From Candidatus Tayloriibacteriota bacterium (GTDB lineage: Bacteria > Patescibacteriota > Minisyncoccia > Phycocordibacterales > UBA6065), in contig JACRJQ010000007.1 of assembly GCA_016215405.1 (NCBI GenBank), forward strand, positions 150,298 through 214,297: DNA of 64,000 bases, in the 5' to 3' direction. A program made the position numbers and the translations under genes. Positions 32,157 to 60,729 of the stretch are shown one piece after another; the first letter of the stretch is position 1; every line of letters starts with the position of its first letter. A model generated the notes under the pieces. It was not told where the DNA came from, ran no database searches, and saw only the letters and a program-made list of their open reading frames with translations.

Positions 32157-32164
32157 GAACGACT

Positions 32165-33370: not shown

Positions 33371-33596
33371 GTTTTTATTGTGGCCTTTGCTTAATCGGTA
33401 CTATACCTCTATATACGAATATTGCAAGCTTTTATACATAAAATTGTATAAAACGACACAAAAATAGTTAATTGAATACGGCTTAAGAAAGTAGGGCTTT
33501 ATTAAGCCACCAGATAAGGGTCATTTGAGAGGGTGCGCCAGAATTATAAAAGCCAAGAGAGTACTCGTGAAAACTCTTGGAAGGGTGTAATTGATT

Positions 33597-33945: not shown

Positions 33946-34084
33946 AGAGATCACGGATACGTTTATCAATTCTTACAGAATCTGTACACCTTTCCCAATT
34001 CTTCGGATGGAAATCCTCAGAATTATGGGAGAAGGTTTTCGATTCTCTCACGCGAGCCGCCCCGGGCTCGCTTAGCCATCCACT

Positions 34085-45297: not shown

Positions 45298-45371
45298 GTG
45301 AGAGTGAAAATAAGCGCTCGGGCCAAGACGCCCTGTGATATAATCGTCTACATTATATCTTATAATCCGCT

Positions 45372-46100
45372 ATGACACATACCACCCACAAGGAAGAATG
45401 GCTCGCCATGCCAATCGCCGTTATCATCGCCGGAGGCCTCATCGCCTTAGGCCTCTTCTACGGCCTTAAGTCTTCAGGATCGCCCGCGCAAGGGGACGCC
45501 GTCGCGCAGAACCCTCAGCAAGGGCTCGGCGAGGATTTCACGGGCGAGCTCGCTCCGGTGAGCGCTTCGGAGCATATCCGCGGCAACCCGAAGGCGAAAG
45601 TCGTCATCGTCGAGTACTCGGACACCGAGTGCCCGTTCTGCAAGATGTACCACAACTCGATGAAGGAGGTGATGTCGAAATACGAGTCGTCAGGCGACGT
45701 GGCGTGGGTATACCGCCACTACCCTATCGACCAGCTCCATAAGAAGGCGCGAAAGGAGGCGGAAGCGACCGAATGCGCTGCGGAGCTCGGTGGAAATACG
45801 AAATTCTGGGCCTATATAGACAGGCTCTTCGAGGTGACCACCTCGAACGACGGCCTCTCGGAGAGCGAGCTTCCTAACATCGCCCAGTATGTGGGCCTCG
45901 ACAGGACGGCCTTTACGAGCTGCCTATCGAGCGGCAGGACAGCGGCGAAGGTTCAGGCGCAGTTCGACGGCGGAGCGAAAGCAGGGGTCAGAGGTACTCC
46001 TCATAGCTTCATCGTCACGAAGGACGACAAAGTAGCCCTCAGCGGCGCGGTCCCGTTCGCAGAGCTCGACAAGATGATCCAAAACGCTCTCTCGAGATAA
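45372..46100 (+). CDS. DsbA-like thioredoxin-fold thiol:disulfide oxidoreductase (membrane-anchored)
   Basis: N-terminal TM, CPFC active site (YSDTECPFCKMYH), Thioredoxin_4-like pattern. Confidence 0.8.
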   Translation: MTHTTHKEEWLAMPIAVIIAGGLIALGLFYGLKSSGSPAQGDAVAQNPQQGLGEDFTGELAPVSASEHIRGNPKAKVVIVEYSDTECPFCKMYHNSMKEVMSKYESSGDVAWVYRHYPIDQLHKKARKEAEATECAAELGGNTKFWAYIDRLFEVTTSNDGLSESELPNIAQYVGLDRTAFTSCLSSGRTAAKVQAQFDGGAKAGVRGTPHSFIVTKDDKVALSGAVPFAELDKMIQNALSR

Positions 46101-46111
46101 TTCGAAGATAG

Positions 46112-46156
46112 CCATACACATAAAAACCGGCCGTGCGGCCGGTTTTTATGTGTATG
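46112..46156. terminator. bidirectional terminator (21-bp-arm perfect palindrome)
   Basis: ccatacacataaaaaccggcc-gtgc-ggccggtttttatgtgtatgg. Confidence 0.75.
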
Positions 46157-46166
46157 GAGACCGGTC

Positions 46167-46781
46167 CTACTCTACGGTCACGTATATACCGCCGGCGACA
46201 GGAGATGATCCATCCAGCTCGTGCCACGCGACACGCGCCTTATCGCCCCTCTCCAGCATAGACACGTCGATTCTGTCGACCTTCGTCGCGACGATACCCT
46301 CGCCTAGCGTAAAGGTCCTTTCGACGCCGCCTTCGTCTCTAAGGGTCAAATCTCTCCCCGAGACCAGGGTCGCGTTTCCCACGAAGAACCAATCGTCGCT
46401 ATCGCGAACGGCGGGCACGACACCGCTCTCTCCCACCCAAATCGAGACAACGTCCTTCGTCACAGGATTCGTTATGACACTCACGACGTCGCCTGACTCT
46501 AGCTTTTCAAGAGGCACGATCGCGATCTTGAATGCTACCGTGCTCGATGAGAGCGAGTAGGCCTTTTCCCGGCCGTCCGAAAGGCTAATGGTGATCGAAA
46601 CTCGATCGATAGACGCGACCGTCCCCATATCGTCTCCTCCCCTCGCCTCAGAGACAGAGCTCTGCGGTCCCGCCTCGGTATCCGTCTCGCGAGCCGACCG
46701 GTCTATCGAGACGTATGAGCCTAGGGAGACCGCGAGGAGGAGCGCTGTCGACGCTATTACCGCCTTTTTTCTGTTCGTCAT
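46167..46781 (-). CDS. hypothetical secreted protein
   Basis: Signal peptide, Ser/Val/Asp-rich, no motif recognised. Confidence 0.45.
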   Translation of the reverse strand: MTNRKKAVIASTALLLAVSLGSYVSIDRSARETDTEAGPQSSVSEARGGDDMGTVASIDRVSITISLSDGREKAYSLSSSTVAFKIAIVPLEKLESGDVVSVITNPVTKDVVSIWVGESGVVPAVRDSDDWFFVGNATLVSGRDLTLRDEGGVERTFTLGEGIVATKVDRIDVSMLERGDKARVAWHELDGSSPVAGGIYVTVE

Positions 46782-46827
46782 ATTGATTTGAATGAATAAT
46801 ACCTACCGACCCAGGCGCGCCTTACAT

Positions 46828-49107
46828 CTACGGACACCCGCTTACATAGCCGCAACTCTGATCCCAGTCGACGCATTCGTATGAGCAATTGCACTCGTAC
46901 CATTCGTAACCGTCGCTACACCAGCTGCAGACCTCATCGGAATTCACGCAATACGGTTCCCCGCACACATATCGGTCCGCCACGTTCGCCGGAGCCGAGA
47001 CCGAGCATGTGCCGGCGCAATTACGGGTTCCGCTATTCGTCTGGCCGCAATTGTTCGCAGACGAAGTGCAGGACTGGCCGTAATAAGACGGATCAGAAGC
47101 CGTGCACGAGCCGTATGCGTTCGTCGTCCCATAGATGCAACCGCCTGGAGAGGACCAACAATAGTAAGGCGCCTGCACGGCCGAGCCGTCGCCATTGACG
47201 CACCCTGTGCAGCCGTATGTTCCATAATTGCAGCCTGCGCCATTGCAGACCGAGCAGGACTGACCGTAATTCGAAGGGCTCTGCGCTGAACAATTGCCAT
47301 ATCCGTCGGTTAGACCGAAGGAGCACGCGCCTGGAGAAGACCAGCAGGTATAGGGCGCCTGCACGGCCGAGCCGTTAGGATTGACGCATGATCCGCCACA
47401 GTTATATGTTCCGTAATTGCATCCCATGCCGGTACACGCCGAGCACGACTGGTTATAGTTCGCTGCGCAGCATGACTGGGTATTGCAGGCCTGAGAGCTC
47501 GCCGGCGGCAGCATCATCGTGCAGATTCCCCCTTCTTCGTACACCCCATCGTCCCGAAGGCAGCGCACCGTCCTCGTCTGAGTGCCGCCTCCGCAGGAAG
47601 CCGAGCAAGACGACCAGCCGCCCAGCTCCCAAGAATAGGAGTGTGCGACCCAGCATGAGCCGTTCGAATAGGGCGTAGATCCCCATGAACCGTTATAGCA
47701 GGTAGACGTCCTCGATACGGACGAGCAGCTCGACGGCCAATAGACATAGCTCGATGAATACGTCGTGCACGACCCCCCGTCAGACACGGTCCCGCAAGCG
47801 CTCGAATAGCACGAGCAGCCTTGGGTATTGCAGCTCTGGCTCGTCGAAGGCTTCCCTCCTCCGCAGTAGGAGTCGGATACGGATATTCCGTCGCTGCGCT
47901 CGCACCACACGCCCCTCGATTGGCTGCCTCCTCCGCAGGACGCCGAACATGATCCCCAGCCGTCGTAATTCCAATAGTAGTCATAGCCGACCGAGCACGA
48001 ACCGTTCGGATAGGGCGATGCGCTCCAAGAGCCGTTACTGCAAGTCGAGGTGCGGGAAACAGACGAACACGACGAAGGATAGCTGACAGAGCTCGAAGAA
48101 TACGAGGTGCAGGAAGCGCCGTTCGACGCGGCGGAGCATGCGCCGGAGGCGCTGCAGCCGCTTGAGCAGCTGCCATAAGCGTACGGAGAGGCGCTCCACG
48201 TGCCGTCGCTACAGGTGGAGGTGCGTGCAACCATAGAACATGAGGCTCCCGACGGAGCGGTCGAAGAATAGGTCGTGCAGGATCCTCCATGCGCGGTCGT
48301 ACCGCAGCCGCCCGAAGCGGAGCAGGACCTGTAGCTCTGAGAGCAAGAGCTGTAGGCCCCCGGCGTCACGGTCCATGCCCCGTTCGAGCACGTAGACGAG
48401 ATAGACGCGCCCGAGCAGGTGGCAGGAGACGTCGCCGAGCTCGCGGTGTAGCTCGTGCAGGAAGCGCCGTTCGACGCGGCGGAACATGCGCCGGAGGCGC
48501 TGCAGCCGCTCGTACAACTGCTGTATACATATGGCGACGCGCTCCATGTACCATCGCTACAGGTAGAGACCCGAGAGACCGTGGAGCACGATGCGCCCGA
48601 AGGGGAATTCGAAGAGTATGTGGTGCAGCTTCCGCCATGAGCCGTCGTGCCGCAGCCGCCCGAGGGCGCGCATGAGCGATAGCCCTGCGAACAAGAGCCG
48701 TAAGCGGCGGGAGTGACGGACCATGCCCCTCCTACGCACGTCGCCGTCACTGATATCGCCGCGCACGTGGTGGGAGACGTTGCCGAGCTCGCGGTGTAGC
48801 TCGTGCATGTGCTTCCCAAGGCAGCGGCGGCGCACCCCCCTGACGCAGCGCACCCGCAGGGAGATTTCGTCACTCCTGTAGGGAGGTGGTCATAGAAGGA
48901 GGCCCATTCTTCTGCCGTCTTCGTAGGGATAAATATCCTGCTCCCTGTATCGTTTGTTATGACATAGCATGTCCCGATCTCGTTCACCGAGATAGCCGAA
49001 CCTGCATTTAGAGAGTACGACGTCGCCGCGTCGGATGCCGTAGCAACTGCAAAAAGAGAGAGGCATAGCGCCAGGCCTTTCGCGATCGCGGCTATTTTAG
49101 TTGGCAT
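46828..49107 (-). CDS. large Cys-rich secreted repeat protein with thrombospondin-type-1-like (TSP1) repeats
   Basis: Signal peptide (MPTKIAAIAKGLALCLSLFAVATA); two or more ~45-aa Cys modules (GGCGTTAHGGSCTTYSS...); two TSP1-like units WGSCSASCGGGSQSRGVWC and WSSCSASCGGGTQTRTVRC; nucleotide-level tandem repeats. The ORF extends to 49188. Confidence 0.6.
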   Translation of the reverse strand: MPTKIAAIAKGLALCLSLFAVATASDAATSYSLNAGSAISVNEIGTCYVITNDTGSRIFIPTKTAEEWASFYDHLPTGVTKSPCGCAASGGCAAAALGSTCTSYTASSATSPTTCAAISVTATCVGGAWSVTPAAYGSCSQGYRSCAPSGGCGTTAHGGSCTTYSSNSPSGASCSTVSRVSTCSDGTWSASPYVYSSCTSGCSASGACSAASNGASCTSYTASSATSPATCSGASISSTCSNGAWTVTPGAYSSCSQSYRSCSASGGCGTTAHGGSCTTYSSTAPSGASCSMVARTSTCSDGTWSASPYAYGSCSSGCSASGACSAASNGASCTSYSSSSVSYPSSCSSVSRTSTCSNGSWSASPYPNGSCSVGYDYYWNYDGWGSCSASCGGGSQSRGVWCERSDGISVSDSYCGGGKPSTSQSCNTQGCSCYSSACGTVSDGGSCTTYSSSYVYWPSSCSSVSRTSTCYNGSWGSTPYSNGSCWVAHSYSWELGGWSSCSASCGGGTQTRTVRCLRDDGVYEEGGICTMMLPPASSQACNTQSCCAANYNQSCSACTGMGCNYGTYNCGGSCVNPNGSAVQAPYTCWSSPGACSFGLTDGYGNCSAQSPSNYGQSCSVCNGAGCNYGTYGCTGCVNGDGSAVQAPYYCWSSPGGCIYGTTNAYGSCTASDPSYYGQSCTSSANNCGQTNSGTRNCAGTCSVSAPANVADRYVCGEPYCVNSDEVCSWCSDGYEWYECNCSYECVDWDQSCGYVSGCP

Positions 49108-49261
49108 CTGTTTTCCGTTATCTACGCTTGCTGCCTTGATAATCCCCAACCTCAGCTCTGAAGGGATCCAGAGCTTGCGACAAGGCACGAGCCCTCACAA
49201 TGAACATTATATACCAATAGTTTCGAAAAATTGAAACTATCGGCGGACAGCCGGCCGAAGG

Positions 49262-49627
49262 CTACTCGACGACGCTTATGGTACCGCGTATCCGAGGCTT
49301 GAGATGGTCGTGGTAAGTCCACTCGCCTGCTTCTTCGAACACGAACTCCCATTCCTCTCCTGGGCCTACGGGCTCTCGCGGATCGAACTCGGGGTAGAGC
49401 TCGTGCGTAGGATGCAGGTTCGAGGCGGGCCAAAGGTAGGCGTCGTCGGTAGCGTTCACGAACCTCACCGCCTCGCCTCGCTTGATGGTCGTCGTTGCTG
49501 GAGAGTAGCCTTTCTCCGTCATGGACATGACAGCGCCCACTCGAACATCTCTGTCTGAAAGGAGCGATGCCCCGAGAGCAGATGCCGCCGCAAGGGTTAA
49601 CAAGGCGATGACCAGCTTCTTACGCAT
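49262..49627 (-). CDS. secreted cupredoxin-like domain protein
   Basis: Signal peptide; ...RFVNATDDAYLWPASNLHPTHE...GEEWEFVFEEAGEWTYHDHLKPRIRGTISV, shared with the N-terminal domains of the genes at 52182 and 54780. Confidence 0.55.
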   Translation of the reverse strand: MRKKLVIALLTLAAASALGASLLSDRDVRVGAVMSMTEKGYSPATTTIKRGEAVRFVNATDDAYLWPASNLHPTHELYPEFDPREPVGPGEEWEFVFEEAGEWTYHDHLKPRIRGTISVVE

Positions 49628-50108
49628 GCTTTTTCTTGAGAAAGAGAATGATAAGGGCTCCTACGACCGCGCCCAGAAGAGCAGAGGCGGATGCGACGAG
49701 AAAAGAAGCCTTAGATCCTTCAGGCGCCCCCACCGAAAACGGAAACTCTCCTTCGGCTATCGTCTCGGAGCCGTCCTGAAATCGCACGAAGAGCGAGTAC
49801 GACCCTTCTTTCGGAAAGACGATGCTGAATCCGGGCTTTCCGAATTCTCCGTAGGCGATCGGCCCGGCAAAAACGGTTTTCTTCCCTTCCTCTATCTTCA
49901 CCCAAGCGCTCGTGAAAGGGATCTCGTCCCCTCCAGAGGCGGGAGAGACCGCGATGTCATACCGGACGAGCTCTCCGGCCACCGGCTCTTGGCTATAGCC
50001 GATATCGAACTTGTGGTCTCCGACGACCGTCTCTATAGAAGGCCCTCCGGCGTGAGCGAAAGCGAAGACCGGTACAAAAGCGAGCAAGAAGAGAGAAGCT
50101 TTTTTCAT
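49620..50108 (-). CDS. hypothetical secreted protein with C-terminal TM anchor
   Basis: Signal peptide, beta-rich body, C-terminal hydrophobic helix plus KKKHA. Confidence 0.45.
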   Translation of the reverse strand: MKKASLFLLAFVPVFAFAHAGGPSIETVVGDHKFDIGYSQEPVAGELVRYDIAVSPASGGDEIPFTSAWVKIEEGKKTVFAGPIAYGEFGKPGFSIVFPKEGSYSLFVRFQDGSETIAEGEFPFSVGAPEGSKASFLVASASALLGAVVGALIILFLKKKHA

Positions 50109-50244
50109 TCGCCTATTCTAGCCTATTTTCAAATCTGCGGGTATTTGAAGCGCCTTAGCCCTTACCTTGCGGCAGGTGAGATGTACCGTATAATTATCGG
50201 GACGTCTAGGCTTAGATTATTAATAAGGTCTGACGCGATCTTGA

Positions 50245-50820
50245 ATGCAAAATAGCAAAAAAGCCATCATCGTCGTTCTATTACTAGCAATCGCCGGTCT
50301 AGGGTACGCGGTGTACTCTAGGCAGGCTGCGCCGGAAGCTCCGACAGCCCAGGTTCAGAACGAGAACCCTACGCCTGCCGGAAACGTCGACGCGACGGGA
50401 GTGAAGGAACAAGCCGCCTCCGCCTCGAAAGTCTCCCTCGCTGAAGTGAGGAAGATCCTAAGCGACAGGGGAGCCAGCCCGACAAAGGAGGCGCTCGACA
50501 GATTCTCCACGAGCGTAACGGCGGCAGCGGTGAGGTCGAGCGTCCTCGATATCTCTGGCTGCGTCGCGACGCCTAACGTGATCGAGGTCTTCGCCGGAGA
50601 GCCGTTCACCGTGAAAAATACCGACAACTTCCCGCACGTGATCCATTACGGCGGAAAGAACCCTGAAACTATCCCTGGGAGCACGGAAAGGAAGATCACC
50701 CTCGAGTTCCCGAACGCGGAGAAAGGCGTTGCTGGAGTCATGTCTCCTTTTACCTGCGACACGGACAAGACTGAGGAGCCTATCGGCATATTCAGCGTAG
50801 TCCCCCGCTCAGACGAATAG
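50245..50820 (+). CDS. membrane-anchored protein with C-terminal small beta-sandwich (cupredoxin/azurin-like) domain
   Basis: CVATPNVIEVFAGEPFTVKNTDNFPHVI...FTCD resembles the C-terminus of the gene at 58454 (CVANPTVAMVAFGQKITFVNDD...GYGCDASQRAIGM). Confidence 0.4.
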   Translation: MQNSKKAIIVVLLLAIAGLGYAVYSRQAAPEAPTAQVQNENPTPAGNVDATGVKEQAASASKVSLAEVRKILSDRGASPTKEALDRFSTSVTAAAVRSSVLDISGCVATPNVIEVFAGEPFTVKNTDNFPHVIHYGGKNPETIPGSTERKITLEFPNAEKGVAGVMSPFTCDTDKTEEPIGIFSVVPRSDE

Positions 50821-50832
50821 CTCTAGCCACGA

Positions 50833-50858
50833 AAAATCCCCCGCTTGGGGGATTTTTC
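50833..50858. terminator. bidirectional rho-independent terminator
   Basis: aaaaatccccc-gctt-gggggattttt. Confidence 0.75.
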
Positions 50859-50879
50859 ATTTCGGCTTCTTCGATAAGG

Positions 50880-52145
50880 CTATCGGGGCGCTTTCGCGTG
50901 GCACTTGTCTTTCCAAGGATCCGGAAGGGCGCCGCAGAACGCGTAGAAGGCATCGCTCCCGGCATGGAAATTATATGTGGAATACTTGAGAAGCTCGAGA
51001 TAGCAGAGATTCTCCGGGTCGTTCGGCGCGGCGCGAGCGCAGAGCGAAGCGGACGCCGCGCTGTTTCGATAGTCTGTCTCTATGATCCTCGATGCTGCCT
51101 GCGCGAAGCAATTGCCCCGAAACTCCCTCGGCATCCCCTCGCAATAGCTCGCGATTTTATCTTCGTCGAATCCCATCTGAGAAGTGAATACGTACATGAG
51201 GGCGTTAAAGCACCTCTGTCTCTCGGGTTCGGCCGGGAGCGCTTCGCAGTGCGCGATGAGGTTATTCGGCTCGAAAAGCTCTTTTCTGAAGAGCGGCCAC
51301 GACTCCGACCAGCACGAGCCCCTTTCACGTCCGCTGTAGCCGCCGCAGAACGCCTCCACCTTATCGAGGCCCACCTCCTTTCCTTCTATGAGAGCGAAAT
51401 CGTCTGGTTCGAGAGGCTGGAATATCTGCATGAACGCGCCGTCGAAGCAGAGCTGGGAAAAATCCCTCGTGCCTTTGAAGGCGAGCTCCTTGCACAACGA
51501 AAGGGAGCGGTCGATATCGGCGTCGGTCACGTACATGAATAGATGGCCTAAGGCGTGATAGCAGCTCGCCTGCTCGAGGCCGGTCGGGGAGAATCCTTCG
51601 CGCCTCTCGCACACGCTCGCGAATTGAGGCTTATACTTCTCGATCTCCTCTGGAGAGAGCGATTCGCGCCTGAACCTCTCCTGGAACGCTCCGTGGATGC
51701 AGCCGTTCGAGCAGACTCCCGAAGGGCACCTCTGTATCACCGTTTGCCACAGATCGGGATCCTTAGCGGTCTCCTTGGCCGAGAGCTTGTGTCCGAGGAC
51801 GTGGCAATACCGATAGCTCGTATCGATGTCTTGGACGATTCTCGTTACCTCGAACGCTTCCTCCATAGATATCTCGTCCATAAGCTTCGGAAGCTCCTCG
51901 TCATAGCAAGTCGGCTTGTACGAGGCGCCAGCACACTCCTCGACGACGCTTTGCGCGTACGAGACGAAATCTCCATGCTCTTTTCGAGAGGGACCTCCGG
52001 AGAGAAGGACCGCGAGCTCGAAGCAGACGAGCGTAGCGAGGACGAGAGCTGTCGCCGGAAAAACCGCTTTCTTCCCTTTCGGAAGCCTTTGAGTGAGCGG
52101 ATGAAAGCGCTTCATGAGCGCATGCATTCTTTTATGGGTATTCAC
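50880..52145 (-). CDS. Cys/His-rich repeat protein, paralogue 1 of an unrecognised extracytoplasmic family
   Basis: N-terminal TM; repeated motifs YCHVLGHKL, SCYHALGHLF, QLCFDGAF, QRCFNAL, NLCYLEL. Confidence 0.55.
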   Translation of the reverse strand: MNTHKRMHALMKRFHPLTQRLPKGKKAVFPATALVLATLVCFELAVLLSGGPSRKEHGDFVSYAQSVVEECAGASYKPTCYDEELPKLMDEISMEEAFEVTRIVQDIDTSYRYCHVLGHKLSAKETAKDPDLWQTVIQRCPSGVCSNGCIHGAFQERFRRESLSPEEIEKYKPQFASVCERREGFSPTGLEQASCYHALGHLFMYVTDADIDRSLSLCKELAFKGTRDFSQLCFDGAFMQIFQPLEPDDFALIEGKEVGLDKVEAFCGGYSGRERGSCWSESWPLFRKELFEPNNLIAHCEALPAEPERQRCFNALMYVFTSQMGFDEDKIASYCEGMPREFRGNCFAQAASRIIETDYRNSAASASLCARAAPNDPENLCYLELLKYSTYNFHAGSDAFYAFCGALPDPWKDKCHAKAPR

Positions 52146-52181
52146 AGCAAGATTATAGCGTACCGGAGACTGAGAGTCTGC

Positions 52182-53639
52182 TTAGGGCTTATAGCAGTCT
52201 TCCCTGCGCAGAGGATCGACTCCGGAGCAGATCGCCTTCTGCTTCTCTTTTGAATAGTAGGCCCGCACGCTTCCGAACGCCGCTTCATAGCAAGAGTCCT
52301 GCTCCCCTTTCGACATTCCCGGGGTCTCGCAGAACGCAATCGCCGCTTCATATTCTCTCCCTGGCGGCCCGAACTCCATAAGCCCCGAAGGTATTCCTTG
52401 GACGCACGGGACGACGAGGTCTTCTCTCGCAGCCTTACAAGAGCGCACCGTAGACTCGAATTCGTCCTCGTAGGGCTCTTTGAAATTCGACGGAAAGACC
52501 CCCGAAAGACTTCTCATCGCGAGCGCCGAATACTGGAGATCGTCTTCGATCTCTTCGACGTATTCTATGGCGCGGGATAAGTCGCTGTTAGAGAGGGTGG
52601 CGACGAGAGTGTTCATCTCCTGGTAGCACGGATTCTTCACCCGAAACTCCTTCCAGTTTTTGCACACCTCGAACGGCCCCCTATCGTCGAGCGACAGATT
52701 ATAGGAGCGCTCGATGAACATGAGCGCGATCGAGTTAAAGACGCCGGAGACGCACCTATAGAAATGAGGCTCAGTGGGATCAACCTTGTTACAGAGAGCG
52801 ATGCCTGGAGAGGCGAGAGCTACAGGATCTCCCCACGCGCGCGGGTCGCCTCCGTCTGCAGCGCCGTGCCCTATGCCGTGGTAGCAGGCCCCTTCTGCGT
52901 TAGCGCTCTCCGAAGCGAGGAGCTTCCCTGCCTGCGCGCAGAACTCCCTCGCCCCGTCGACGTCTCCGGATATCTGGAGCATCTCTTCCATGAAGCCGTG
53001 ATAGAAGCCATAACTGCAATACGATGTCTTCGCGGAAAGCTTTATCTCTTTACCCTCGTCGAAGGCGAGATAGGCGCTCTTGCCGAGGATGTGGGCGACG
53101 GAGTGGCATGAATCCCGAAACCTCGGATCGGTATCGTAGAGCTCGGCCATACGGTCAAGCGCGGCGTCGAGGCCGCCTTTTTTAAGAGCTGCGACGACGT
53201 CTGCTTGAAAGCATTCCCCGGGCGTCGAGCTGGCCGATTTGCAATCAGGCACGACAACCTTGCCTGTCGAGCTTAAGACCACGATCTCTCCCGTCTGCCG
53301 CGAGGCTAGATGGTCATGGAATTTCCATATGCCGGGCTTTTCGAAAGAGAACGACCAAGACCCTCCTGCCTCGACGGGCATCTTGGGGTCGAATTGCGAA
53401 TATATGCCATGGCTCGGATGGAGATCGGATGCCGGCCAGAACGGATTATCCGACTCGTTGCGGAAAGTCACTCTATCGCCAAGGGACACCACAAGCCTTC
53501 TCGGCGAAAATCCGCTAGCGTCATAGGCTATCTCTCTCGTCTTCGAGAGAGAAAAATCGTCTCTGCTTAAGACGAGATAGGCGGCGATCGCCGAGATCGC
53601 GAGGACGAGGATGGTTGCACCGATGAGGGCTTTGCGCAT
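52182..53639 (-). CDS. Cys/His-rich repeat protein, paralogue 2, with N-terminal cupredoxin-like domain
   Basis: TM, then ...FWPASDLHPSHG...GIWKFHDHL..., then SCHSVAHILG, YCSYGFYHGF, GACYHGIGHGA, NPCYQEM, SCYEAAFG. Confidence 0.6.
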   Translation of the reverse strand: MRKALIGATILVLAISAIAAYLVLSRDDFSLSKTREIAYDASGFSPRRLVVSLGDRVTFRNESDNPFWPASDLHPSHGIYSQFDPKMPVEAGGSWSFSFEKPGIWKFHDHLASRQTGEIVVLSSTGKVVVPDCKSASSTPGECFQADVVAALKKGGLDAALDRMAELYDTDPRFRDSCHSVAHILGKSAYLAFDEGKEIKLSAKTSYCSYGFYHGFMEEMLQISGDVDGAREFCAQAGKLLASESANAEGACYHGIGHGAADGGDPRAWGDPVALASPGIALCNKVDPTEPHFYRCVSGVFNSIALMFIERSYNLSLDDRGPFEVCKNWKEFRVKNPCYQEMNTLVATLSNSDLSRAIEYVEEIEDDLQYSALAMRSLSGVFPSNFKEPYEDEFESTVRSCKAAREDLVVPCVQGIPSGLMEFGPPGREYEAAIAFCETPGMSKGEQDSCYEAAFGSVRAYYSKEKQKAICSGVDPLRREDCYKP

Positions 53640-53648
53640 TATCGTTAT

Positions 53649-54698
53649 TTATATGATGATCTCCGATTGTTCGAGGCAGTACGCATTCTCCGTCGCGGCA
53701 AGGCCCTGGCACGGCTCGCCCTTCCGCTCTCGCGAAGTCGGCTCCGCGAAAAAAGACCACGCCGCGCCGGCTCGGCACAGAAGCTCGCCTTCTCTGTCGG
53801 GCATCTTCGAGCACGCGGCGATCGATCTGACCGCGTCATACCTCTCATTTGCCCCGATCGAATTTCCGAGGCCTTTATAGCACGCCTCCCTCTCGCGCCC
53901 CGAAGGCGCGAGAGCGCAGAATTCTCCCGCTCTGGCCTGATCGCCCCCGAAGACGTTCATAAGCCATGCGGGCAATTCAAAATAGCAGGCCTCCGCGTAT
54001 GGTTTCGGTACCGAATCGCACGGGTAAAGGGGTCTCGAGGCGTCGAACTCCCGAGGCTCTGCCCCCTCGAGGCTCTGCATGGTCCGAAAGTTATATTCCA
54101 TAAAGACGCCCGATGTGCACCCGCCGATAGGCCCTTTCCATGAGAGCTTTCCGCAGATATCGAGCGCCTCGACGAGAGCGTCCTCACCCAGAAAACCGAG
54201 CACGCCGTGCCCTATCCCGTGCGGGCACCCGAGCCCTTTCGGGCCCCACTTCTTCACGCACTCTTTATCGAGCTCGAACACGACGTCAGGGCCGTTCTCC
54301 GTTATCGCCTTGCCGAAAAAGCTGTGATAGCAGCCGAAGGCGAAAGCGCTGTCGCAAACAGCGACTCCTGCAATGCCCTCTTTCTCATAGATAAGCTCTC
54401 CCATGATATGCGCGAGCGTGTGCGCTACGCCGAATTCCTTATCCTTGTTGCCCTCTTTGAAGAGCTCGTAGGCCCTTTCCGCTCCTTTATCCTCTATCTC
54501 CTTCTTCCAAAGCCTCTTCTCCTTGGTGTAATGGCCGGACCAGAGAGGATTGAGGGAGTCTTCGGGCCTTGCGTCCGCGCCTTCGCCCCGTATGAGGATC
54601 GAGGCCTCGAAGGCGACGATCGCGATAAGAGCGAGAGCGACGGAGATGAAAACCCTATGCGATGAAGCCCTTCGAAGCATGCGAGAGACAAATGACAT
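53649..54698 (-). CDS. Cys/His-rich repeat protein, paralogue 3
   Basis: VCDSAFAFGCYHSFFG, GCPHGIGHGV, GCTSGVFMEYN, EACYFELPAW, EACYKGLG. Confidence 0.6.
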   Translation of the reverse strand: MSFVSRMLRRASSHRVFISVALALIAIVAFEASILIRGEGADARPEDSLNPLWSGHYTKEKRLWKKEIEDKGAERAYELFKEGNKDKEFGVAHTLAHIMGELIYEKEGIAGVAVCDSAFAFGCYHSFFGKAITENGPDVVFELDKECVKKWGPKGLGCPHGIGHGVLGFLGEDALVEALDICGKLSWKGPIGGCTSGVFMEYNFRTMQSLEGAEPREFDASRPLYPCDSVPKPYAEACYFELPAWLMNVFGGDQARAGEFCALAPSGREREACYKGLGNSIGANERYDAVRSIAACSKMPDREGELLCRAGAAWSFFAEPTSRERKGEPCQGLAATENAYCLEQSEIII

Positions 54699-54779
54699 GC
54701 ATGAATTATATTCTATTTGCCAGAGGCCACAACGTTTGCCCGCTATTTTTTCGGGCCTCGGTTCTGTATAATTTGATGG

Positions 54780-56291
54780 ATGAAGCGAATCCGCCCACTC
54801 CTGTCGAGAGTCGCGAGACCGAGGCTGCTCCTCGCCTTCGCGGCGGCAGTCCTACTTTGCGCGGGAGGCGTCTATGCATCTTTACGCGGAACCGAAGGTC
54901 CGCGCGAATATACCATCGAAGCCAAAGAAGGCTCCTTCTTTCCCTCGAAGATCGCTCTTATCGTAGGGGACAAGGTGACCTTTAAGAACCTCGAATCTCA
55001 TTCGATCTGGCCGGCGTCCGACCCGCATCCGACCCATGAATTCCTCGCTGCCTTCGACCCAGGCGCGCCTATCCCCCCAGGAGGCTCTTGGACCTACAAA
55101 TTCTCCGAGACCGGGACATGGAGGTTCCACGACCACCTCGACGTGACGGTTCAGGGCGAGATACACGCTCTCGGCCGCACATCCGAGAAGACGGTCAAAA
55201 AATCGGCCTCGGGCGGATACTGCGACGGCAAATGCTTCGACGACCTGGTCAAAGAGACCGTCAAAGAGAAGGGCATCGACGCCGCCTACGCTCTCTTTCA
55301 AGAGACCTATGACTCTGGAAACCTGCCGCGAAGCTGTCATTGGACGGCCCACAAGATCGGAGAAGAGGCGTATCACCTCTTTAAAGAAGGGAAGGATTTC
55401 GCGATAACACAAGCCACATCCTACTGCGCATACGGTTTCTACCACGGATTCCTCGAAGGTCTCCTGCGCGATAATCCCGATCCTGCCTACGCGCTTACGT
55501 TCTGCGACAAGGTCGAGGAAAAGCTCGGTCGGTTGGGATTGCAAAACTGCTACCACGGTATAGGGCACGGCTTTACCGAAGATCCTCCGGATCCAAAGGT
55601 CGAGGGAGATTTCGAAGGGATGATAGAACCAGGCATAAAGATGTGCGAGTTCCTCTTCGGAAAGGATTTCAACAACCTCAACCTCTGCCTCACAGGCGTC
55701 TATACCGTTCCCGCGGGCTTCGCCTCTGATGGTACATACGGGCTTTCGATCGATCCCAAGGATCCGTTCGCGCTCTGCAAGGACGAACCTCTGCGCTACA
55801 AAAAAGCCTGCTATGGGGAATTCGCGCCCAAGCTCGATAAGATACTCGAAGGGGACATGTCACCCCTGCCTTCCTACGTCTCGTCTATAGACGACGATCG
55901 GCTCAAGAGGCTCGTCGTCTGGGTCGTACCGTCGGTCATGATGTCGCGAGACGTCACGTCCGCGGATCATTCGAAATATGTAGATTCATGCCGCCAAGGA
56001 TTCGAGGGCAGATACAGGCTTATCTGTTGGGGAGGTTCCATTCTCGGCTTCTTCTCTCATGGAAAACCCGAAAAGGAATACGAACCAGCGCTCGCTTTCT
56101 GCGCCTCTGCTTCATGGAAGACCGAGGGAGAGAGGACTTTCTGCTACGGCGAGGCGTTCAGACAGATGAGGCAGAACTACTCTATCGAGAAAGTAAAAAG
56201 CATTTGCCCCCTCGCCCCGAAAGCCTATGAGAGGCTCTGTCTCGATGAGAAAGGAGAGCATACCTCCCCTTACGACGACCCATCATTCTAA
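54780..56291 (+). CDS. Cys/His-rich repeat protein, paralogue 4, with N-terminal cupredoxin-like domain
   Basis: TM, then ...IWPASDPHPTHE...GTWRFHDHL..., then SCHWTAHKIG, YCAYGFYHGF, NCYHGIGHGF, KACYGEFAP, TFCYGEAF. Confidence 0.6.
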   Translation: MKRIRPLLSRVARPRLLLAFAAAVLLCAGGVYASLRGTEGPREYTIEAKEGSFFPSKIALIVGDKVTFKNLESHSIWPASDPHPTHEFLAAFDPGAPIPPGGSWTYKFSETGTWRFHDHLDVTVQGEIHALGRTSEKTVKKSASGGYCDGKCFDDLVKETVKEKGIDAAYALFQETYDSGNLPRSCHWTAHKIGEEAYHLFKEGKDFAITQATSYCAYGFYHGFLEGLLRDNPDPAYALTFCDKVEEKLGRLGLQNCYHGIGHGFTEDPPDPKVEGDFEGMIEPGIKMCEFLFGKDFNNLNLCLTGVYTVPAGFASDGTYGLSIDPKDPFALCKDEPLRYKKACYGEFAPKLDKILEGDMSPLPSYVSSIDDDRLKRLVVWVVPSVMMSRDVTSADHSKYVDSCRQGFEGRYRLICWGGSILGFFSHGKPEKEYEPALAFCASASWKTEGERTFCYGEAFRQMRQNYSIEKVKSICPLAPKAYERLCLDEKGEHTSPYDDPSF

Positions 56292-57277
56292 CGAGGACCG
56301 GCTCCGACTATCTCCCCTCTACAGCTTTGCCCTACTTCCGTTCGCGCCTCTGCGCATATAAGGAGGGCGCCATCTTTTAGTCCTAAGGCGCCGAGCCTCA
56401 TCGCGGCGCCTTTATAGCAGAGGTCCTGCCCTCCTCTTTCGCTTATCATCGCGCACCGCTCCTTTATCTCGGAAACGGAGCGGTCCACAGACTCTACGAC
56501 CACGCTTCCCCAGCCCAGATAGCACGCGTCTCTCTCGGGATTCCCTTTCGCCTCAGAGCACATATTGCCGACTCGGGCAGGATCGTCGGGAAAGATACCG
56601 CTCCACCAAGCGCCCATCTCGAAATAGCACGAGCGCCTGAAATCGAGCGATGAGAGCTCGTCGCAAGGAGCGTGCATATCCCCGTCGACTGGCCGCCTGA
56701 AGTCGAACGACGCTATGCCTCCGTCGAAGCGGATAGAGTTGTTATATTCCATGAATACGCCTGAGGTGCATCCGTAGAGAGGATCGGGCTGGTCGGTCTT
56801 CCTGCAGAGCTCGAGGGCTGGGACGAGCTTGTTGCGGCCCATGTGCTCCATGATCCCGTGGCCGATGCCGTGCTTACATCCTGTATCGCCCGTACCATAC
56901 CTTTCGGTACAGGCTCGGGCGAGCTCCTCTATTATTCCGACGCCCTTCTCTGCGATCGCCCGGCCTATAAAGCCGTGATAGCAGCCGAAAGCGAACTCCT
57001 CGTCGCAGGTCGCGAACCCATCAGATCCCATGATCTCGTAGAGATCTCTCCCGACGTCATGCGCCGCATTGTGCTGGGTATCGAAATCCTCTTTAGCGTA
57101 TCTCGCCTTAAACTCCTGATAGGCCTCTGCGGCTCCGACCTTCTCTGCACGCGCACGCAGGGCAAATGTGCTCTCGGTCCCCTCTCGCCCGTATAACAGG
57201 GCTACAGCGCAGACGGCCAGGGCGACCGCCCCAAAAAAGACGGCTCGCGCGCTTATTGTAAAAGCTTTCTTTGACAC
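56288..57277 (-). CDS. Cys/His-rich repeat protein, paralogue 5
   Basis: TCDEEFAFGCYHGFIG, GCKHGIGHGI, GCTSGVFMEYN, SCYFEMGAW, DACYLGWG. Stop overlaps paralogue 4's stop by 4 nt (convergent). Confidence 0.6.
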   Translation of the reverse strand: MSKKAFTISARAVFFGAVALAVCAVALLYGREGTESTFALRARAEKVGAAEAYQEFKARYAKEDFDTQHNAAHDVGRDLYEIMGSDGFATCDEEFAFGCYHGFIGRAIAEKGVGIIEELARACTERYGTGDTGCKHGIGHGIMEHMGRNKLVPALELCRKTDQPDPLYGCTSGVFMEYNNSIRFDGGIASFDFRRPVDGDMHAPCDELSSLDFRRSCYFEMGAWWSGIFPDDPARVGNMCSEAKGNPERDACYLGWGSVVVESVDRSVSEIKERCAMISERGGQDLCYKGAAMRLGALGLKDGALLICAEARTEVGQSCRGEIVGAGPR

Positions 57278-58452
57278 GATTGAGAATATTCTTCAGGCAC
57301 TGCGGCGCAGATCGCCTTACGGCCCTCGGAAGACAAATACGAGGAGGCATTACCAAAGAGGACGTCATAGCATGATGACTGGAGATCGGAGGGAGAGAGC
57401 TCACAGAAGCGCAAAGACGCCTTTGGGTCGTTCTCCCCTCCCCAGAATATAGAGCTCAGGGCAGATCCCATGCAGTCGATCTTTCCGTCTTCGGGCTTCG
57501 CGAGAGAGCACCATTCATAGACTCTCCTTAGCTGCTCGTCCGACATCCTGTCGATGGCACGGATGTCCCTGTTCTGAGCGAGGACGACGAACTCCTTTCC
57601 GAACCCGCCGAAACAGGCGCGCCTGTCGCCGTTAGTAAGAGGCTCACAGTATGTAAAAGCCTCCTTAAAATCCGCGGGCAAGGGATTCCCGAGATTCCCT
57701 CCTGCAGAGACGAAGAGATGAGGCGTTATGTACGTGTAGCACATGCCGCGGGCGGCCTCGTTCATGAAATCAGCCGAGCAGGGATAGAGAGGGTCTTCGG
57801 CCTTGAAATATTTCTTCGATTTCTCGAGCCACATCTCCCTGTCATGGACCCCTCCTATCATCTCCATGATCGTGCCCCCGACACACTCGGAATATTCGCG
57901 CCCTTTAGTCCCTGACTTCTCGCACATCTTCACAGCTAGAGGTAGCTCGTATTCGTTATACGCGAGGACGCCGTGCCCGAGCCCGTGGAAGCACATCGTG
58001 TAGGCGCCAGGACCTCCGGGAGCCTGCTTGCAAAGCTCGACGATCTCACCGAACGACTCAGGACCTTTCTCAAGAAGGGTCCCGATCACGATAGTGTGCG
58101 AGCAAGCATTCCTAAAATCGTCGGTACAGCTCAAGATACCCTCTGCCCCCTGCTGCTCGTAGAGGATGTCGCCTACGATATGGCCGAGAAGGTGCACGTC
58201 TATATTAGGCGGCAAGGGCGCCCTTTTAAGCACCTCGAACGCGTAGAGGGCGCCCTTATCCTCCGCGAGGCTAGAAAAATAGCTTGAGAGGTCCTTGAAC
58301 GACGCGTCTTTCGGTATCTCCATCGCCTCTGCGTATAGAGCGTCGCTGTCGCCCGAGAAAAGATAGGCGACTAGACAAACGTTCGCAAGGACGAGGAGGG
58401 CTATGGCGATCCCCGCAGACCCAGAGAACCATTTGATCGCCTTGCGAACCAT
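57253..58452 (-). CDS. Cys/His-rich repeat protein, paralogue 6
   Basis: VHLLGHIVGD, MCFHGLGHGV, ECVGGTIMEM, GMCYTYITP, RACFGGFG, SCYDVLFG. Confidence 0.6.
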   Translation of the reverse strand: MVRKAIKWFSGSAGIAIALLVLANVCLVAYLFSGDSDALYAEAMEIPKDASFKDLSSYFSSLAEDKGALYAFEVLKRAPLPPNIDVHLLGHIVGDILYEQQGAEGILSCTDDFRNACSHTIVIGTLLEKGPESFGEIVELCKQAPGGPGAYTMCFHGLGHGVLAYNEYELPLAVKMCEKSGTKGREYSECVGGTIMEMIGGVHDREMWLEKSKKYFKAEDPLYPCSADFMNEAARGMCYTYITPHLFVSAGGNLGNPLPADFKEAFTYCEPLTNGDRRACFGGFGKEFVVLAQNRDIRAIDRMSDEQLRRVYEWCSLAKPEDGKIDCMGSALSSIFWGGENDPKASLRFCELSPSDLQSSCYDVLFGNASSYLSSEGRKAICAAVPEEYSQSCQRKLLQ

Positions 58453-58453
58453 G

Positions 58454-58945
58454 CTATTCGGTGACGACGATCATACCGATCGCCCTCTGAGAGGCGTCGC
58501 ATCCGTATCCGTATATGCCTTTACCCTTCTCGAAGTCGGCCACGATCTCCTTCTTGGATTTTGCCGGGACCGAATACCTATCCTCGATGTTGAAACCTAT
58601 CATGTGTTCGACGGAGTCGTCGTTTACGAAGGTTATCTTTTGTCCAAAGGCCACCATCGCGACCGTCGGATTCGCGACGCAGGTCGATATATTGATCGTG
58701 TCTGTCTTGACCGCCGCTTCCAAGACCCGCTCCGCATGCTGCCTCTTCCTCTCCTCGAGGTCGTCGACCGCAGGAGTGTTCAATATCGCCTCGACATCAG
58801 TCCCTACCGTCTGGCCTTTATCTGCGGACGGCGAGGACGATCTGCCGAGAGAGGACCCCGGATTCTTCTCGACATAAATAAGGTAGCCAAGGACGAGGGC
58901 TGCGAGGACGAGACCACCTATCGTATATTTTGCTGTATTGCTCAT
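58454..58945 (-). CDS. membrane-anchored small cupredoxin/azurin-like beta-sandwich protein
   Basis: Start at MSNTAKYTIGG (TM); C-terminal CVANPTVAMVAFGQKITFVNDD...HMIGF...GYGCDASQRAIGMIVV. The ORF's first 42 codons (to 59071) were rejected. Confidence 0.45.
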   Translation of the reverse strand: MSNTAKYTIGGLVLAALVLGYLIYVEKNPGSSLGRSSSPSADKGQTVGTDVEAILNTPAVDDLEERKRQHAERVLEAAVKTDTINISTCVANPTVAMVAFGQKITFVNDDSVEHMIGFNIEDRYSVPAKSKKEIVADFEKGKGIYGYGCDASQRAIGMIVVTE

Positions 58946-59029
58946 GGTTTTGCTTATTAAGCTCCGATAATTATAGCATTCCGAGCCGGCCCAAGGGTGC
59001 GTGATATAATCATGCGGACCATCTAACCT

Positions 59030-59746
59030 ATGCGCGCAATGAACCATCTCCTCCGTCGACTCTTTCCACACGCCGAGGCCTGGCTCACACCTGCGGCGAT
59101 CGTGCTAGGCTCGATCATCATCGCCTCGAGCATAGCCTTAAGCGGCGAAAAGAGAACGATCCCTCCGCAGCCTGGACGCGAGCCTGTCACGACCCTCAAG
59201 ATACCCGCCCTCAATCCCTCAGACCACGTCTTGGGAAATCGAAATGCCCCTGTGATCATGATCGAGTACTCCGATACCGAATGCCCGTTCTGTAAACGCT
59301 TCCATTCTACTCTCCAAAAGATAATGAAAGAGTACGGGAGCGAAGGCGATGTCGCTTGGGCCTTCCGTCACTTTCCGGTACACAAGAAGTCCATGAAAGA
59401 AGGACATGCTCTCGAGTGCGCCGCCGAACTTGGAGGAAACGAGGTGTTCTGGAAATACGCCGACCGGATATTCGAAGAGACCTCCTCGAACGACAGCCTC
59501 GATCTCGGCCTCCTGAGGCCTTTTGCGGCCGATCTCGGCCTTGACGTCGAGGCTTTCGGCGAATGCCTCGAAAGCGGGAAATACGATGAGAAGATGACCG
59601 ATCAGAGGAGCGAGGCCGACGCTGCGGGAGCAAAAGGAACGCCATGGACAGTCATAGTCTCTAAGGGGCGATGGATCCCCCTCAACGGAGCGGTGCCGTA
59701 CGAGACCGTCGAATCGATCGTAAAAGAAGCCCTCCGCGCGCGCTAA
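59030..59746 (+). CDS. DsbA-like thioredoxin-fold thiol:disulfide oxidoreductase, paralogue 2
   Basis: TM, then YSDTECPFCKRFH...GDVAWAFRHFPV; strongly similar to the 45372 gene product. Confidence 0.8.
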   Translation: MRAMNHLLRRLFPHAEAWLTPAAIVLGSIIIASSIALSGEKRTIPPQPGREPVTTLKIPALNPSDHVLGNRNAPVIMIEYSDTECPFCKRFHSTLQKIMKEYGSEGDVAWAFRHFPVHKKSMKEGHALECAAELGGNEVFWKYADRIFEETSSNDSLDLGLLRPFAADLGLDVEAFGECLESGKYDEKMTDQRSEADAAGAKGTPWTVIVSKGRWIPLNGAVPYETVESIVKEALRAR

Positions 59747-59756: not shown

Positions 59757-60437
59757 ATGAAAGAACCGAGCATCATCGTCCCTTTCCATAACGAAGAAGG
59801 GTGCGTGGCGTTCGTCATAGAGGAGATCCTTCGGGAATTCCCCGATGCTGAGATCGTGGCGATAGACGACGGCTCCACCGATCGCACGAGGGAGATCCTC
59901 AAGAGGTTCGAGCGCGTGCGCCTCATCGCCTTCGAACAGCGGCTCGGCCAAAGCGCGGCTCTTTGGGCCGGCCTTCGAAAAGCGACTCGTGAGATATGCG
60001 TCCTTATGGATGGGGACGGAGAGAGCGATCCGAGGGACATACGCGCGCTCCTGAAGCTCCTCGATACGAACGACTTCGCATGCGGCTACCGTATCGGACG
60101 GCAAGACGGCGCGATGAAACGGATAGCCTCAGCGGCGGCGAACAGGCTTCGCAAAGCCGTCACGAAGGACTCCGCCAAAGATACGGGCGCGATGAAAGCG
60201 ATACGAAGAATCCACGCGCCGCATCTCGTCCCCTTCGAAGGCATGCATCGGTTCGTGCCCGCCCTTTTACAGGGAGCAGGGCTCACATTGGGACAAGCGC
60301 CGGTCAGAGCGCGAAGACGCTACGCCGGAAAGTCGAAATACGGCATATGGGATAGAGCGAGAAGAGGGCTTTTAGACCTTATGGGAGTAAAATGGATCAT
60401 GTCGAGAAGGATCGACCCTAACAAAAGCGATGAATAG
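59757..60437 (+). CDS. family-2 glycosyltransferase (polyprenol-phosphate sugar synthase, DPM1/GtrB-like)
   Basis: IIVPFHNEE...AIDDGSTD...D-x-D GT2 signatures; 226 aa. Confidence 0.85.
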   Translation: MKEPSIIVPFHNEEGCVAFVIEEILREFPDAEIVAIDDGSTDRTREILKRFERVRLIAFEQRLGQSAALWAGLRKATREICVLMDGDGESDPRDIRALLKLLDTNDFACGYRIGRQDGAMKRIASAAANRLRKAVTKDSAKDTGAMKAIRRIHAPHLVPFEGMHRFVPALLQGAGLTLGQAPVRARRRYAGKSKYGIWDRARRGLLDLMGVKWIMSRRIDPNKSDE

Positions 60438-60729
60438 CGTCTTATTCGCAGTATCGGGGATACAGGTGACGATATGGACCGTGACAGGGCTCGCCGGCGC
60501 CGCGCTTTTCGCGTCTCGATGGGTCGTGCAGGTCTTTCATTCAAAGGCCTACGGAAGCTCTTCGATCCCTCCGCTTTTTTGGTATATGAGCGCGGCCGGA
60601 AGCGTCCTTCTCATCGCGTATTTCTCGTTCGGAGCGAGAGACCTCGTCGGAGTCGCCTCGAACGCGCTCCCCCTCCTCGTATCTTCGTACAACCTATATC
60701 TCGTATGCAAAGAAAGAGCAAAAAGATAG
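60430..60729 (+). CDS. lipid-A-biosynthesis N-terminal domain-like (LAB_N) small membrane protein
   Basis: FASRWVVQ motif, three TM segments, classic position after a GtrB-like GT2. Confidence 0.55.
   Translation: MNSVLFAVSGIQVTIWTVTGLAGAALFASRWVVQVFHSKAYGSSSIPPLFWYMSAAGSVLLIAYFSFGARDLVGVASNALPLLVSSYNLYLVCKERAKR

Follow-up and report, generated by a model that had tools for sequence, protein, structure and literature searches.

A conserved Patescibacteria cluster of exported solenoid and cupredoxin-like proteins, flanked by two DsbA-like genes, is a candidate metal-binding surface module

We analyzed a 64,000-nucleotide stretch of the Candidatus Tayloriibacteriota genome (contig JACRJQ010000007.1; hereafter the window), in which 14 genes were read at positions 45372-59746, the first and last encoding DsbA-like thiol:disulfide oxidoreductases (DsbA1 and DsbA2; Table 1). 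On the best-supported reading, three layers make up these 14 kb: a conserved core, general DsbAs, and additions particular to the lineage. The core (49262-58945) is a Patescibacteria gene cluster, found mostly in Parcubacteria/Paceibacterota and made of four domain types, here called Sol (an alpha-solenoid rich in Cys and His), Cup (a Cys-free cupredoxin-like domain, standalone or fused to Sol), B191 (a degenerate cupredoxin) and H162 (a small protein with a mature N-terminal His). We assign a probability of about 0.55 to the reading that this core is a conserved surface module binding metal through His and containing a disulfide-dependent solenoid, with the DsbAs general in function and the remaining genes lineage-specific. 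Sol, Cup, B191 and H162 are membrane-anchored extracytoplasmic proteins, and under this proposal they would together form a His-ligated metal-binding surface that might serve to capture, store or hand over the metal or to carry out redox chemistry. The DsbAs, members of an MdbA-like family enriched in the candidate phyla radiation (CPR), would very probably fold the cluster proteins as general oxidases rather than as a co-conserved part of the cluster.

The spread of the core was followed from an alignment of orthologues of the F421-type Sol gene, which yielded 75 related loci on contigs from one genome per species, with flanks of up to 10 kb on each side (the forward test). Domain hidden Markov models (HMMs) were built for Sol, Cup, H162, DsbA and B191, the last from the C-terminal domain common to the 191- and 163-residue proteins. 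The consensus order across these loci is [B191] Sol~410 Sol~340 Sol~405 ... Cup+Sol ... Cup~130 H162~175, mostly co-directional, with a median of 5 Sol genes per locus (minimum 1, maximum 13). F421 orthologues occur in 75 loci at a median identity of 49%, and the F399 type is matched over at least 70% of its length in 58 loci, also at a median identity of 49%. Cup homologues were present in 60-69 loci and the B191 domain in 33, and H162 adjoined a standalone Cup gene 21 times. Searched by exact motif, the cluster occurs in more than 129 species-level genomes, and all family matches bearing a source name are hypothetical proteins of CPR bacteria. Fusions were also found across the loci, comprising 96 Cup+Sol proteins and one each of H162+Cup, Cup+B191 and Sol+B191; in P0136, too, H162 is joined to a cupredoxin domain. 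Because the four domain types are found fused to each other, they probably act together, and the cluster proteins may associate physically. Neither the cluster nor the Sol family appears to have been described in the searchable literature, Pfam, NCBIfam or the PDB, and both are built from known folds. Some cluster-bearing contigs (L013, L065 and others in L006-L080) are labelled Verrucomicrobiia, Acidimicrobiales, Gammaproteobacteria or Saccharibacteria; for the first three labels, mis-binning or automatic labelling is the likely cause.

A first-pass annotation of the window had proposed a six-member Cys/His family in this region, and the alignment of the six Sol proteins bears this out, with four invariant His and seven invariant Cys. 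None of the six matched a Pfam family at E ≤ 10, none of the three members scanned against NCBIfam (50880-52145, 52182-53639 and 53649-54698) found a match, and a comparison with PDB sequences was likewise negative. A profile search of 1.84 billion representatives recovered 6,985 cluster representatives at E ≤ 1e-3 (about 7,000 clusters at 50% identity). Sol domains also occur in tandem, up to nine in one metagenome protein; giants with 4-9 tandem domains include P0146 (3580 aa) and P0147-P0150. An AlphaFold2 model of the F421-type protein (50880-52145) is all-alpha, with a predicted local distance difference test score (pLDDT) of 93.2. Foldseek returned no fold match in the PDB at E ≤ 1e-3, the best being importin, retromer and ARM proteins, that is, generic HEAT/ARM solenoids, at E ≥ 0.019 and a TM-score of about 0.2. 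Among 386 Sol domains, His 115, 151, 197 and 201 are kept in 96-99% and nine Cys in 97-100%, and position 111 is His in 75%. The variable Cys are gained or lost pairwise: 140-149 and 300-312 (r = 1.0), 404-415 (r = 0.92) and 335-346 (r = 0.70). We therefore describe Sol, from model and alignment, as a chain of helical repeats of about 35 residues, each predicted to be closed by one disulfide, in which four or five His would form a patch on three consecutive repeats.

Sol has the helical-hairpin alpha-solenoid architecture of Sel1-like and HEAT/ARM proteins, is exported, and carries one Cys pair per repeat; it differs from them in matching no Sel1 or HEAT family in Pfam at E ≤ 10 and in a conserved His cluster that has no counterpart there. 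Disulfide-bridged alpha/alpha repeats are known from the Hcp proteins of Helicobacter, which contain Sel1-like repeats and resemble Sol in this respect; Hcp was not among the top 50 Foldseek matches for Sol. Three other identities suggested by local motifs were rejected, each with no support from Pfam, the PDB or Foldseek: a LanC-like cyclase (CHG motifs), a zincin (HExxH, where the Sol motif is HxxGH and lacks the Glu) and a type-3 copper protein (HxxxH).

Three small cupredoxin-like proteins had also been proposed in the block, and profile searches against PDB sequences agreed; two further cupredoxin-like domains, fused at the N-termini of the proteins encoded at 52182-53639 and 54780-56291, had been missed. 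The Cup profile, which includes the standalone protein of the window, matched the cupredoxin domain of NirK (1.3e-8) and amicyanin (1.9e-7), and the standalone protein itself fell just below the cutoff for Pfam Cupredoxin_1 (9.4e-6, 26 bits against a cutoff of 27). Judged by these profile matches, Cup is a true cupredoxin homologue, and B191, whose profile includes both window proteins of this type and matched plastocyanin (4.6e-5), is a weaker one. The homology to the cupredoxin fold thus holds for both, but neither has the His-Cys-His-Met ligand set of a type-1 copper site. In Cup, the Asp of the H-D-H motif aligns at the position of the type-1 Cys, the protein has no Cys at all, and H41, H44, H75, D76 and H77 are invariant or nearly so (conservation over 131 and 43 sequences), with an invariant HPxH at the upstream ligand region. 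Cup keeps a His at the upstream ligand position, as do amicyanin, plastocyanin, NirK and the multicopper oxidases, and the two His that flank the site of the lost Cys resemble the H-C-H of NirK and the multicopper oxidases. Unlike in those proteins, the His/Met loop is not conserved in Cup, and the candidate ligand set is instead four His and one Asp (HPxH...HDH). Engineered azurin C112D, with its "type 2 / type zero" sites, offers a comparison for such an arrangement. In B191, the residue aligned with the type-1 Cys is Cys72, but the loop with the His/Met ligands is missing and there is a second invariant Cys; because these ligands are absent and a partner Cys is present, a disulfide is likelier than a copper site.

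The N-terminus of H162 reads AFA|HAGG around the predicted signal-peptide cleavage site, and in 25 homologues the first residue after this site, H19, is invariant and the residue at -1 is A or G. E26, D35, Y38, D51 and W69 are each at least 90% conserved, and the AlphaFold2 model (pLDDT 89.5) is an eight-strand sandwich with a C-terminal transmembrane helix (residues 134-161). YcnI of Bacillus subtilis, in which a monohistidine brace binds Cu(II) (PMC8424229), shares this topology, and an N-terminal His chelates metal irrespective of protein structure (PMC12537917). H162 shares with YcnI and other DUF1775 proteins the signal peptide, the first mature His, the beta-sandwich and the C-terminal membrane anchor, and, like YcnI, CopC and PmoD, it has conserved carboxylates and a Trp and lies beside cupredoxin-type genes. 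It differs from the DUF1775 proteins in having no Pfam match at E ≤ 5, to DUF1775 or to any other family, and in having no CopCD-type importer nearby.

If the core does bind metal, the metal is most likely copper, which is favored because of the cupredoxin ancestry of Cup and the N-terminal His of H162. Several points weigh against the metal-binding reading as a whole. We infer metal binding by the core, and the spatial clustering of the Sol His is deduced from their equivalent positions in successive repeats. For H162, Foldseek gave generic Ig/FN3 matches only, with CopC at rank 24 and PmoD at rank 47, indistinct from noise, and did not single out YcnI. No canonical copper-homeostasis gene recurs beside the cluster: CopA, CopZ, CsoR and CopCD were all missing, as were thioredoxin-fold proteins, from the top 25 Pfam families of the 126 nearest neighbor open reading frames (ORFs), which are half of the neighbors, in a list crowded by TPR models. 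An ArsR/HTH_5 regulator beside the cluster in L002 was considered as a sign of metal regulation and rejected, being found in one genome only. To our knowledge, few copper enzymes are known in CPR bacteria, so the need for a copper module is unclear. Finally, the adjacency of DsbA and Cup described below is non-random, and reading the DsbAs as purely general may understate a functional tie.

Since no canonical copper-homeostasis genes accompany the cluster, a serious rival to the metal-binding reading is that Sol, Cup, H162 and B191 are surface scaffolds or adhesins that bind no metal, acting in cell-cell contact, host attachment or cell-wall organization of episymbiotic CPR bacteria, with the His in structural or catalytic roles. 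Alpha-solenoids are typical protein-binding scaffolds, and HEAT/ARM proteins are the sole fold matches of Sol. The copy number of 1-13 per locus, the giants with up to nine tandem domains and the adhesin-like TSP1 protein next to the core in the window also fit this picture, as do neighbors encoding Hint-domain proteins (35 loci), PMT_2 glycosyltransferases (11 loci) and a separate group of Hint and PG-binding-type proteins (43 loci). We nevertheless consider it possible rather than probable. The orthogroups are strongly conserved between distant lineages (median identity 49%), which is ill-suited to variable adhesins; the four His of Sol are retained almost without exception across the 386 domains; the cupredoxin found in fusion with Sol retains His at positions of copper ligands; and mature H162 begins with an invariant His. 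Within the metal-binding reading, we tentatively propose a more specific arrangement, itself rather doubtful, in which the Cys-less cupredoxin (HPxH...HDH) docks on the Sol His cluster, so that a multi-His and possibly multinuclear copper site would form between unrelated folds and be loaded by the anchored N-terminal-His protein.

The first-pass annotation had taken the two DsbA paralogues to be a dedicated oxidative-folding system, co-evolved and co-regulated with the Cys-rich proteins that they bracket. Much of the gene content on which that model was built stands. Pfam and hydropathy agree that both flanking ORFs, 45372-46100(+) and 59030-59746(+), encode membrane-anchored CPFC DsbA-like proteins, and the motifs YSDTECPFCK, GDVAW..RH.P and ECAAELGGN are the same in both, but the description of near-identical cores does not extend to the whole proteins, which are only 42% identical. 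The TSP1-repeat giant was likewise verified (46828-49188, minus strand, 786 aa, 82 Cys, two TSP1_ADAMTS repeats at 6e-19). The block between the DsbA genes, however, holds 12 genes and not 10, since those for the proteins of 204 aa (46167-46781) and 162 aa (49620-50108) had been overlooked. All 12 encode exported proteins with an N-terminal hydrophobic segment, as judged from hydropathy, but they are not uniformly Cys-rich: three (the 204-aa, 121-aa and 162-aa proteins) have no Cys and two others have only two. The six Sol proteins and the TSP1 giant together contain 182 Cys (up to about 90 disulfides) and must therefore be clients of some extracytoplasmic oxidase.

The first-pass annotation had named a lack of co-conservation as grounds for refuting a dedicated system, and such a lack is largely what the comparison shows. 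Only 6 of the 75 related loci have a DsbA-like gene within the fetched flanks (69 have none), and in none of the 75 is the cluster bracketed. A reverse test started from the closest DsbA relatives (41-58% identity): the 80 metagenome loci that encode them, with flanks adding up to 599 kb, contained no Sol, H162 or B191 gene and two Cup genes, both non-adjacent. The close relatives instead lie among housekeeping genes, BdbC/DsbB-like genes (PCVLCWYQR; seven loci), second DsbA copies (seven loci) and CPC-motif P1B heavy-metal ATPases (14 of the 80 loci), and other genes there encode small membrane proteins that have Cys motifs but match no Pfam family. The 80 loci are numbered L081-L160, and examples of such neighbors are L108:11048-12958 and L107:4851-5336. 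Gene orientation in the window also speaks against co-transcription with the adjoining Cys-rich genes, as neither DsbA is on their strand: DsbA1 and the 204-aa gene are convergent, DsbA1 and a gene for the pilus ATPase PilB divergent, and DsbA2 and the cluster divergent, with the glycosyltransferase gene GT2 following DsbA2 after 10 bp. No DsbB/VKOR re-oxidizing partner was found among the window ORFs scanned, nor any homologue of the BdbC-like gene seen at the loci of close relatives.

The link between DsbA and the cluster is nonetheless real, if loose and restricted to certain lineages. Each of the six DsbA-positive loci has a DsbA gene within 2-113 bp of the standalone Cup gene that stands at the edge of the cluster, and in four (L013, L029, L032 and L073) it is on the same strand across a short gap and may be co-transcribed; DsbA is the commonest non-family neighbor of standalone Cup. 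Based on the share of flank DNA within 1 kb of a cluster edge, the adjacency of six of the seven DsbA genes has a naive p of 7e-4, or about 0.01 when only the three independent arrangements are counted. L029 has a second local DsbA paralogue, as the window does, and the lineage of the window gained both the 82-Cys giant and DsbA2. These observations, with the large number of Cys in the seven Cys-rich proteins of the block, speak for a dedicated system; the gene that the DsbAs abut, Cup, has no Cys. A small protein encoded downstream of DsbA in L013, L029, L032 and L073 (u19) was considered as a DsbB/VKOR and rejected, as it has no Pfam match and no Cys. The closest syntenic relatives of the window, L006 and L009, have H162, Cup, DsbA (convergent) and PilB arranged as in the window, and because this gene order is kept, the position of DsbA1 is inherited within the clade. 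Both loci lack DsbA2 and the TSP1 giant, and B191 is abutted there by GT2/PMT or other genes. The flanking by DsbA is thus a local, lineage-level arrangement and not a system. What survives of the earlier proposal is a loose, recurrent adjacency to the standalone Cup gene at the cluster edge, and we judge a dedicated folding system to be improbable. It is plausible that the DsbAs of the window are general-purpose oxidases, tied loosely and recurrently to the cluster.

The DsbA part of the locus is already known biology. Both proteins match Pfam Thioredoxin_4 (DsbA1 7e-23, 82.1 bits; DsbA2 8e-25, 88.4 bits; cutoff 23.2) and DSBA (DsbA1 2e-14, 54.2 bits; DsbA2 1e-16, 61.8 bits; cutoff 25.6), and each has a single CPFC, a second Cys pair and, by hydropathy only, one N-terminal hydrophobic segment (residues 8-35 in DsbA1, which has four Cys in all). 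C87, P88, C90 and the cis-Pro pair T209-P210 are invariant among nine cluster-linked DsbA homologues. The top PDB match of DsbA1 is 4n30 (3e-17), and Corynebacterium diphtheriae DsbA (4pwo) and BdbD also match, so that its nearest solved relatives are class-II DsbA, MdbA and BdbD. Like MdbA (Actinomyces, Corynebacterium), BdbD (Bacillus) and the class-II DsbAs (Pseudomonas aeruginosa DsbA2, Wolbachia DsbA1), the window proteins are anchored, have a thioredoxin fold into which a helical domain is inserted, carry a CPxC motif, a cis-Pro T-P loop and a further, structural Cys pair, and are located on the surface of cells that lack an outer membrane. A CPR-enriched family of MdbA-like anchored oxidoreductases (3.6k.fam00998) has been described, and a role in pilin folding was proposed for it (Meheust et al., 10.1101/335083); in CPR genomes its most frequent neighbor is VKOR (10.1101/335083). 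The arrangement seen here differs in that no VKOR or DsbB is nearby and two paralogues flank one cluster, and it recalls the pilin-folding proposal (10.1101/335083) in that DsbA1 adjoins PilB. That the cluster-linked DsbAs handle metal for Cup and H162 in the manner of ScsC, Sco or TlpA-like proteins (copper reduction or binding, or ligand upkeep) is very unlikely: they always abut the Cys-free Cup and never a Cys-rich gene, DsbA1 weakly matches ScsC-type "copper/metal resistance" proteins (6nen 8e-5, 6mhh 1.5e-4) and close relatives sit beside the P1B ATPases mentioned above, but classical DsbA, MdbA and BdbD proteins match best, with E-values 5-12 orders of magnitude lower, CPFC with a cis-Pro T-P loop is the typical oxidase configuration, and close relatives are paired with a BdbC/DsbB-like partner.

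The third layer consists of the TSP1 giant, the 204-aa gene and DsbA2, which are lineage-specific additions. The TSP1 giant matches Pfam TSP1_ADAMTS (68.5 bits against a cutoff of 23.8) in two stretches and contains a 348-nt internal duplication (tandem repeat at 48107-48807); its start is likely the Met at 49107. TSP1 repeats are unusual in a CPR bacterium. The 75 loci contain no full-length relative of the giant, only its N-terminal module of about 80 residues: residues 26-109 align at 34-38% identity with proteins encoded at the opposite end of the cluster in L006 and L009. These proteins (L006:1604-2395 and L009:2001-2822, at the B191 end) continue after the N-terminal module with repeats rich in Tyr and Gly (YSEGYYPP) and end in a C-terminal cap rich in Cys; they look like a surface family with a variable center that travels with the cluster in this clade. 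The 204-aa protein has no Pfam match and no homologue in the 75 loci.

The giant is probably mis-annotated in public records. Other gene callers picked alternative frames in 46828-49188, three NCBI protein accessions lie between its neighbors, and the uninterrupted 786-aa ORF is absent as such from the protein collection. The fragmentation of the gene in the Logan record, a 29-kb contig, was traced to a gene-calling difference, the DNA being 100% identical. Protein entries matching the locus include NCBI HZA81_03485 and HZA81_03490, from a 214-kb contig.

Table 1. Genes of the DsbA-flanked region of the window and of the adjoining downstream segment (positions of the window).
Gene	Positions	Strand	Description
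DsbA1	45372-46100	+	DsbA/MdbA/BdbD-type thiol:disulfide oxidoreductase, membrane-anchored, CPFC, second Cys pair
204-aa exported protein	46167-46781	-	Lineage-specific; 0 Cys, N-terminal hydrophobic segment
TSP1 giant	46828-49188	-	786-aa Cys-rich surface protein, 82 Cys
Cup, standalone (121 aa)	49262-49627	-	Cys-free cupredoxin-like; invariant WPAS, HPxH, FD, H-D-H
H162 (162 aa)	49620-50108	-	Predicted signal peptide, mature N-terminal His, 8-strand beta-sandwich, C-terminal transmembrane anchor
B191 type (191 aa)	50245-50820	+	Anchored degenerate cupredoxin, 2 invariant Cys
Sol, F421 type	50880-52145	-	Anchored alpha-solenoid, ~10 Cys-pair repeats and His cluster; most conserved orthogroup
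Cup+Sol fusion (485 aa)	52182-53639	-	Assigned by alignment and domain HMMs
Sol, short type (349 aa)	53649-54698	-	Assigned by alignment and domain HMMs
Cup+Sol fusion (503 aa)	54780-56291	+	Opposite in orientation to the rest of the cluster
Sol, short type (329 aa)	56288-57277	-	Assigned by alignment and domain HMMs
Sol, F399 type	57253-58452	-	Second well-conserved orthogroup
B191 type (163 aa from MSNTAKY)	58454-58945	-	First gene of the minus-strand Sol run; NCBI protein also 163 aa
DsbA2	59030-59746	+	DsbA1 paralogue (42% identity), lineage-specific addition
GT2	59757-60437	+	Pfam Glycos_transf_2 1.9e-28
609-aa anchored protein	60474-62303	+	Downstream of GT2
PMT_2/GT-C glycosyltransferase	62291-63769	-	Pfam PMT_2 9.6e-11

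The immediate neighbors of the cluster in the 75 loci are heterogeneous apart from a few recurrent groups. Genes for Hint-domain proteins (PT-HINT, about 370 aa; for example L071:5802-6908(-) and L002:3047-6687) are the commonest non-family neighbors of Sol clusters, and 21 of them lie within 300 bp of one. In 9 of the 11 loci with PMT_2/GT-C glycosyltransferases, these are within 300 bp of cluster genes, at times with GT2 alongside (window 59757-63769; L007:11628-13232; L006:3911-7218; L032:11383-13667), and in L006 orthologues of PMT_2 and GT2 adjoin the B191 end. The recurrence of PMT_2 suggests extracytoplasmic glycosylation of the cluster products.

The same 11-mer, GTGATATAATC, precedes both DsbA genes (in 45298-45371 and 58946-59029). 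We rejected it as a shared operator, its simplest reading being an extended -10 consensus; by eye, a TGnTATAAT-like element also stands ahead of every other transcription unit of the locus, and promoter and terminator scans of the locus found nothing above shuffled expectation. The PilB/GspE ATPase gene that adjoins DsbA1 lies within 43549-45297, and other type IV pilus genes (a pilin with an N-methylation motif, PilC/T2SSF and PilM; 17352-25021) are about 20 kb away. Elsewhere in the window, a segment at 28000-34000 has a low guanine-plus-cytosine content (0.40-0.49, against about 0.57 in the rest of the window). Its minus-strand ORFs (29087-30109, 30057-31616, 31626-32156 and 32165-33370) encode a SIR2_2-domain protein, a KAP-family P-loop nucleoside triphosphatase, an RloB-like protein and an AAA_21 ATPase, and the segment looks like an acquired anti-phage defense island.

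Much of bacterial diversity belongs to the Patescibacteria, and no function has been assigned to most of the surface proteins specific to their lineages. The interest of the locus lies in the cluster, which is widespread, conserved in order and sequence and entirely extracytoplasmic, and not in the flanking DsbAs. Three hallmarks make it open to experiment: the cupredoxin with Asp in place of Cys, the invariant N-terminal His, and the invariant multi-His patch. If the proposed copper site between Sol and Cup is real, it would mean surface copper redox chemistry, detoxification or acquisition in organisms without a respiratory chain, and Sol would be a new metal-binding family of about 7,000 sequence clusters in a previously undescribed, Patescibacteria-specific metalloprotein system. 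Should the cluster bind copper, it would thus offer a route to studying how uncultured episymbionts handle metals and carry out redox chemistry at their surface; should it bind no metal, it would still be an important and conserved scaffold of the cell surface, dependent on MdbA-like oxidases for its folding.

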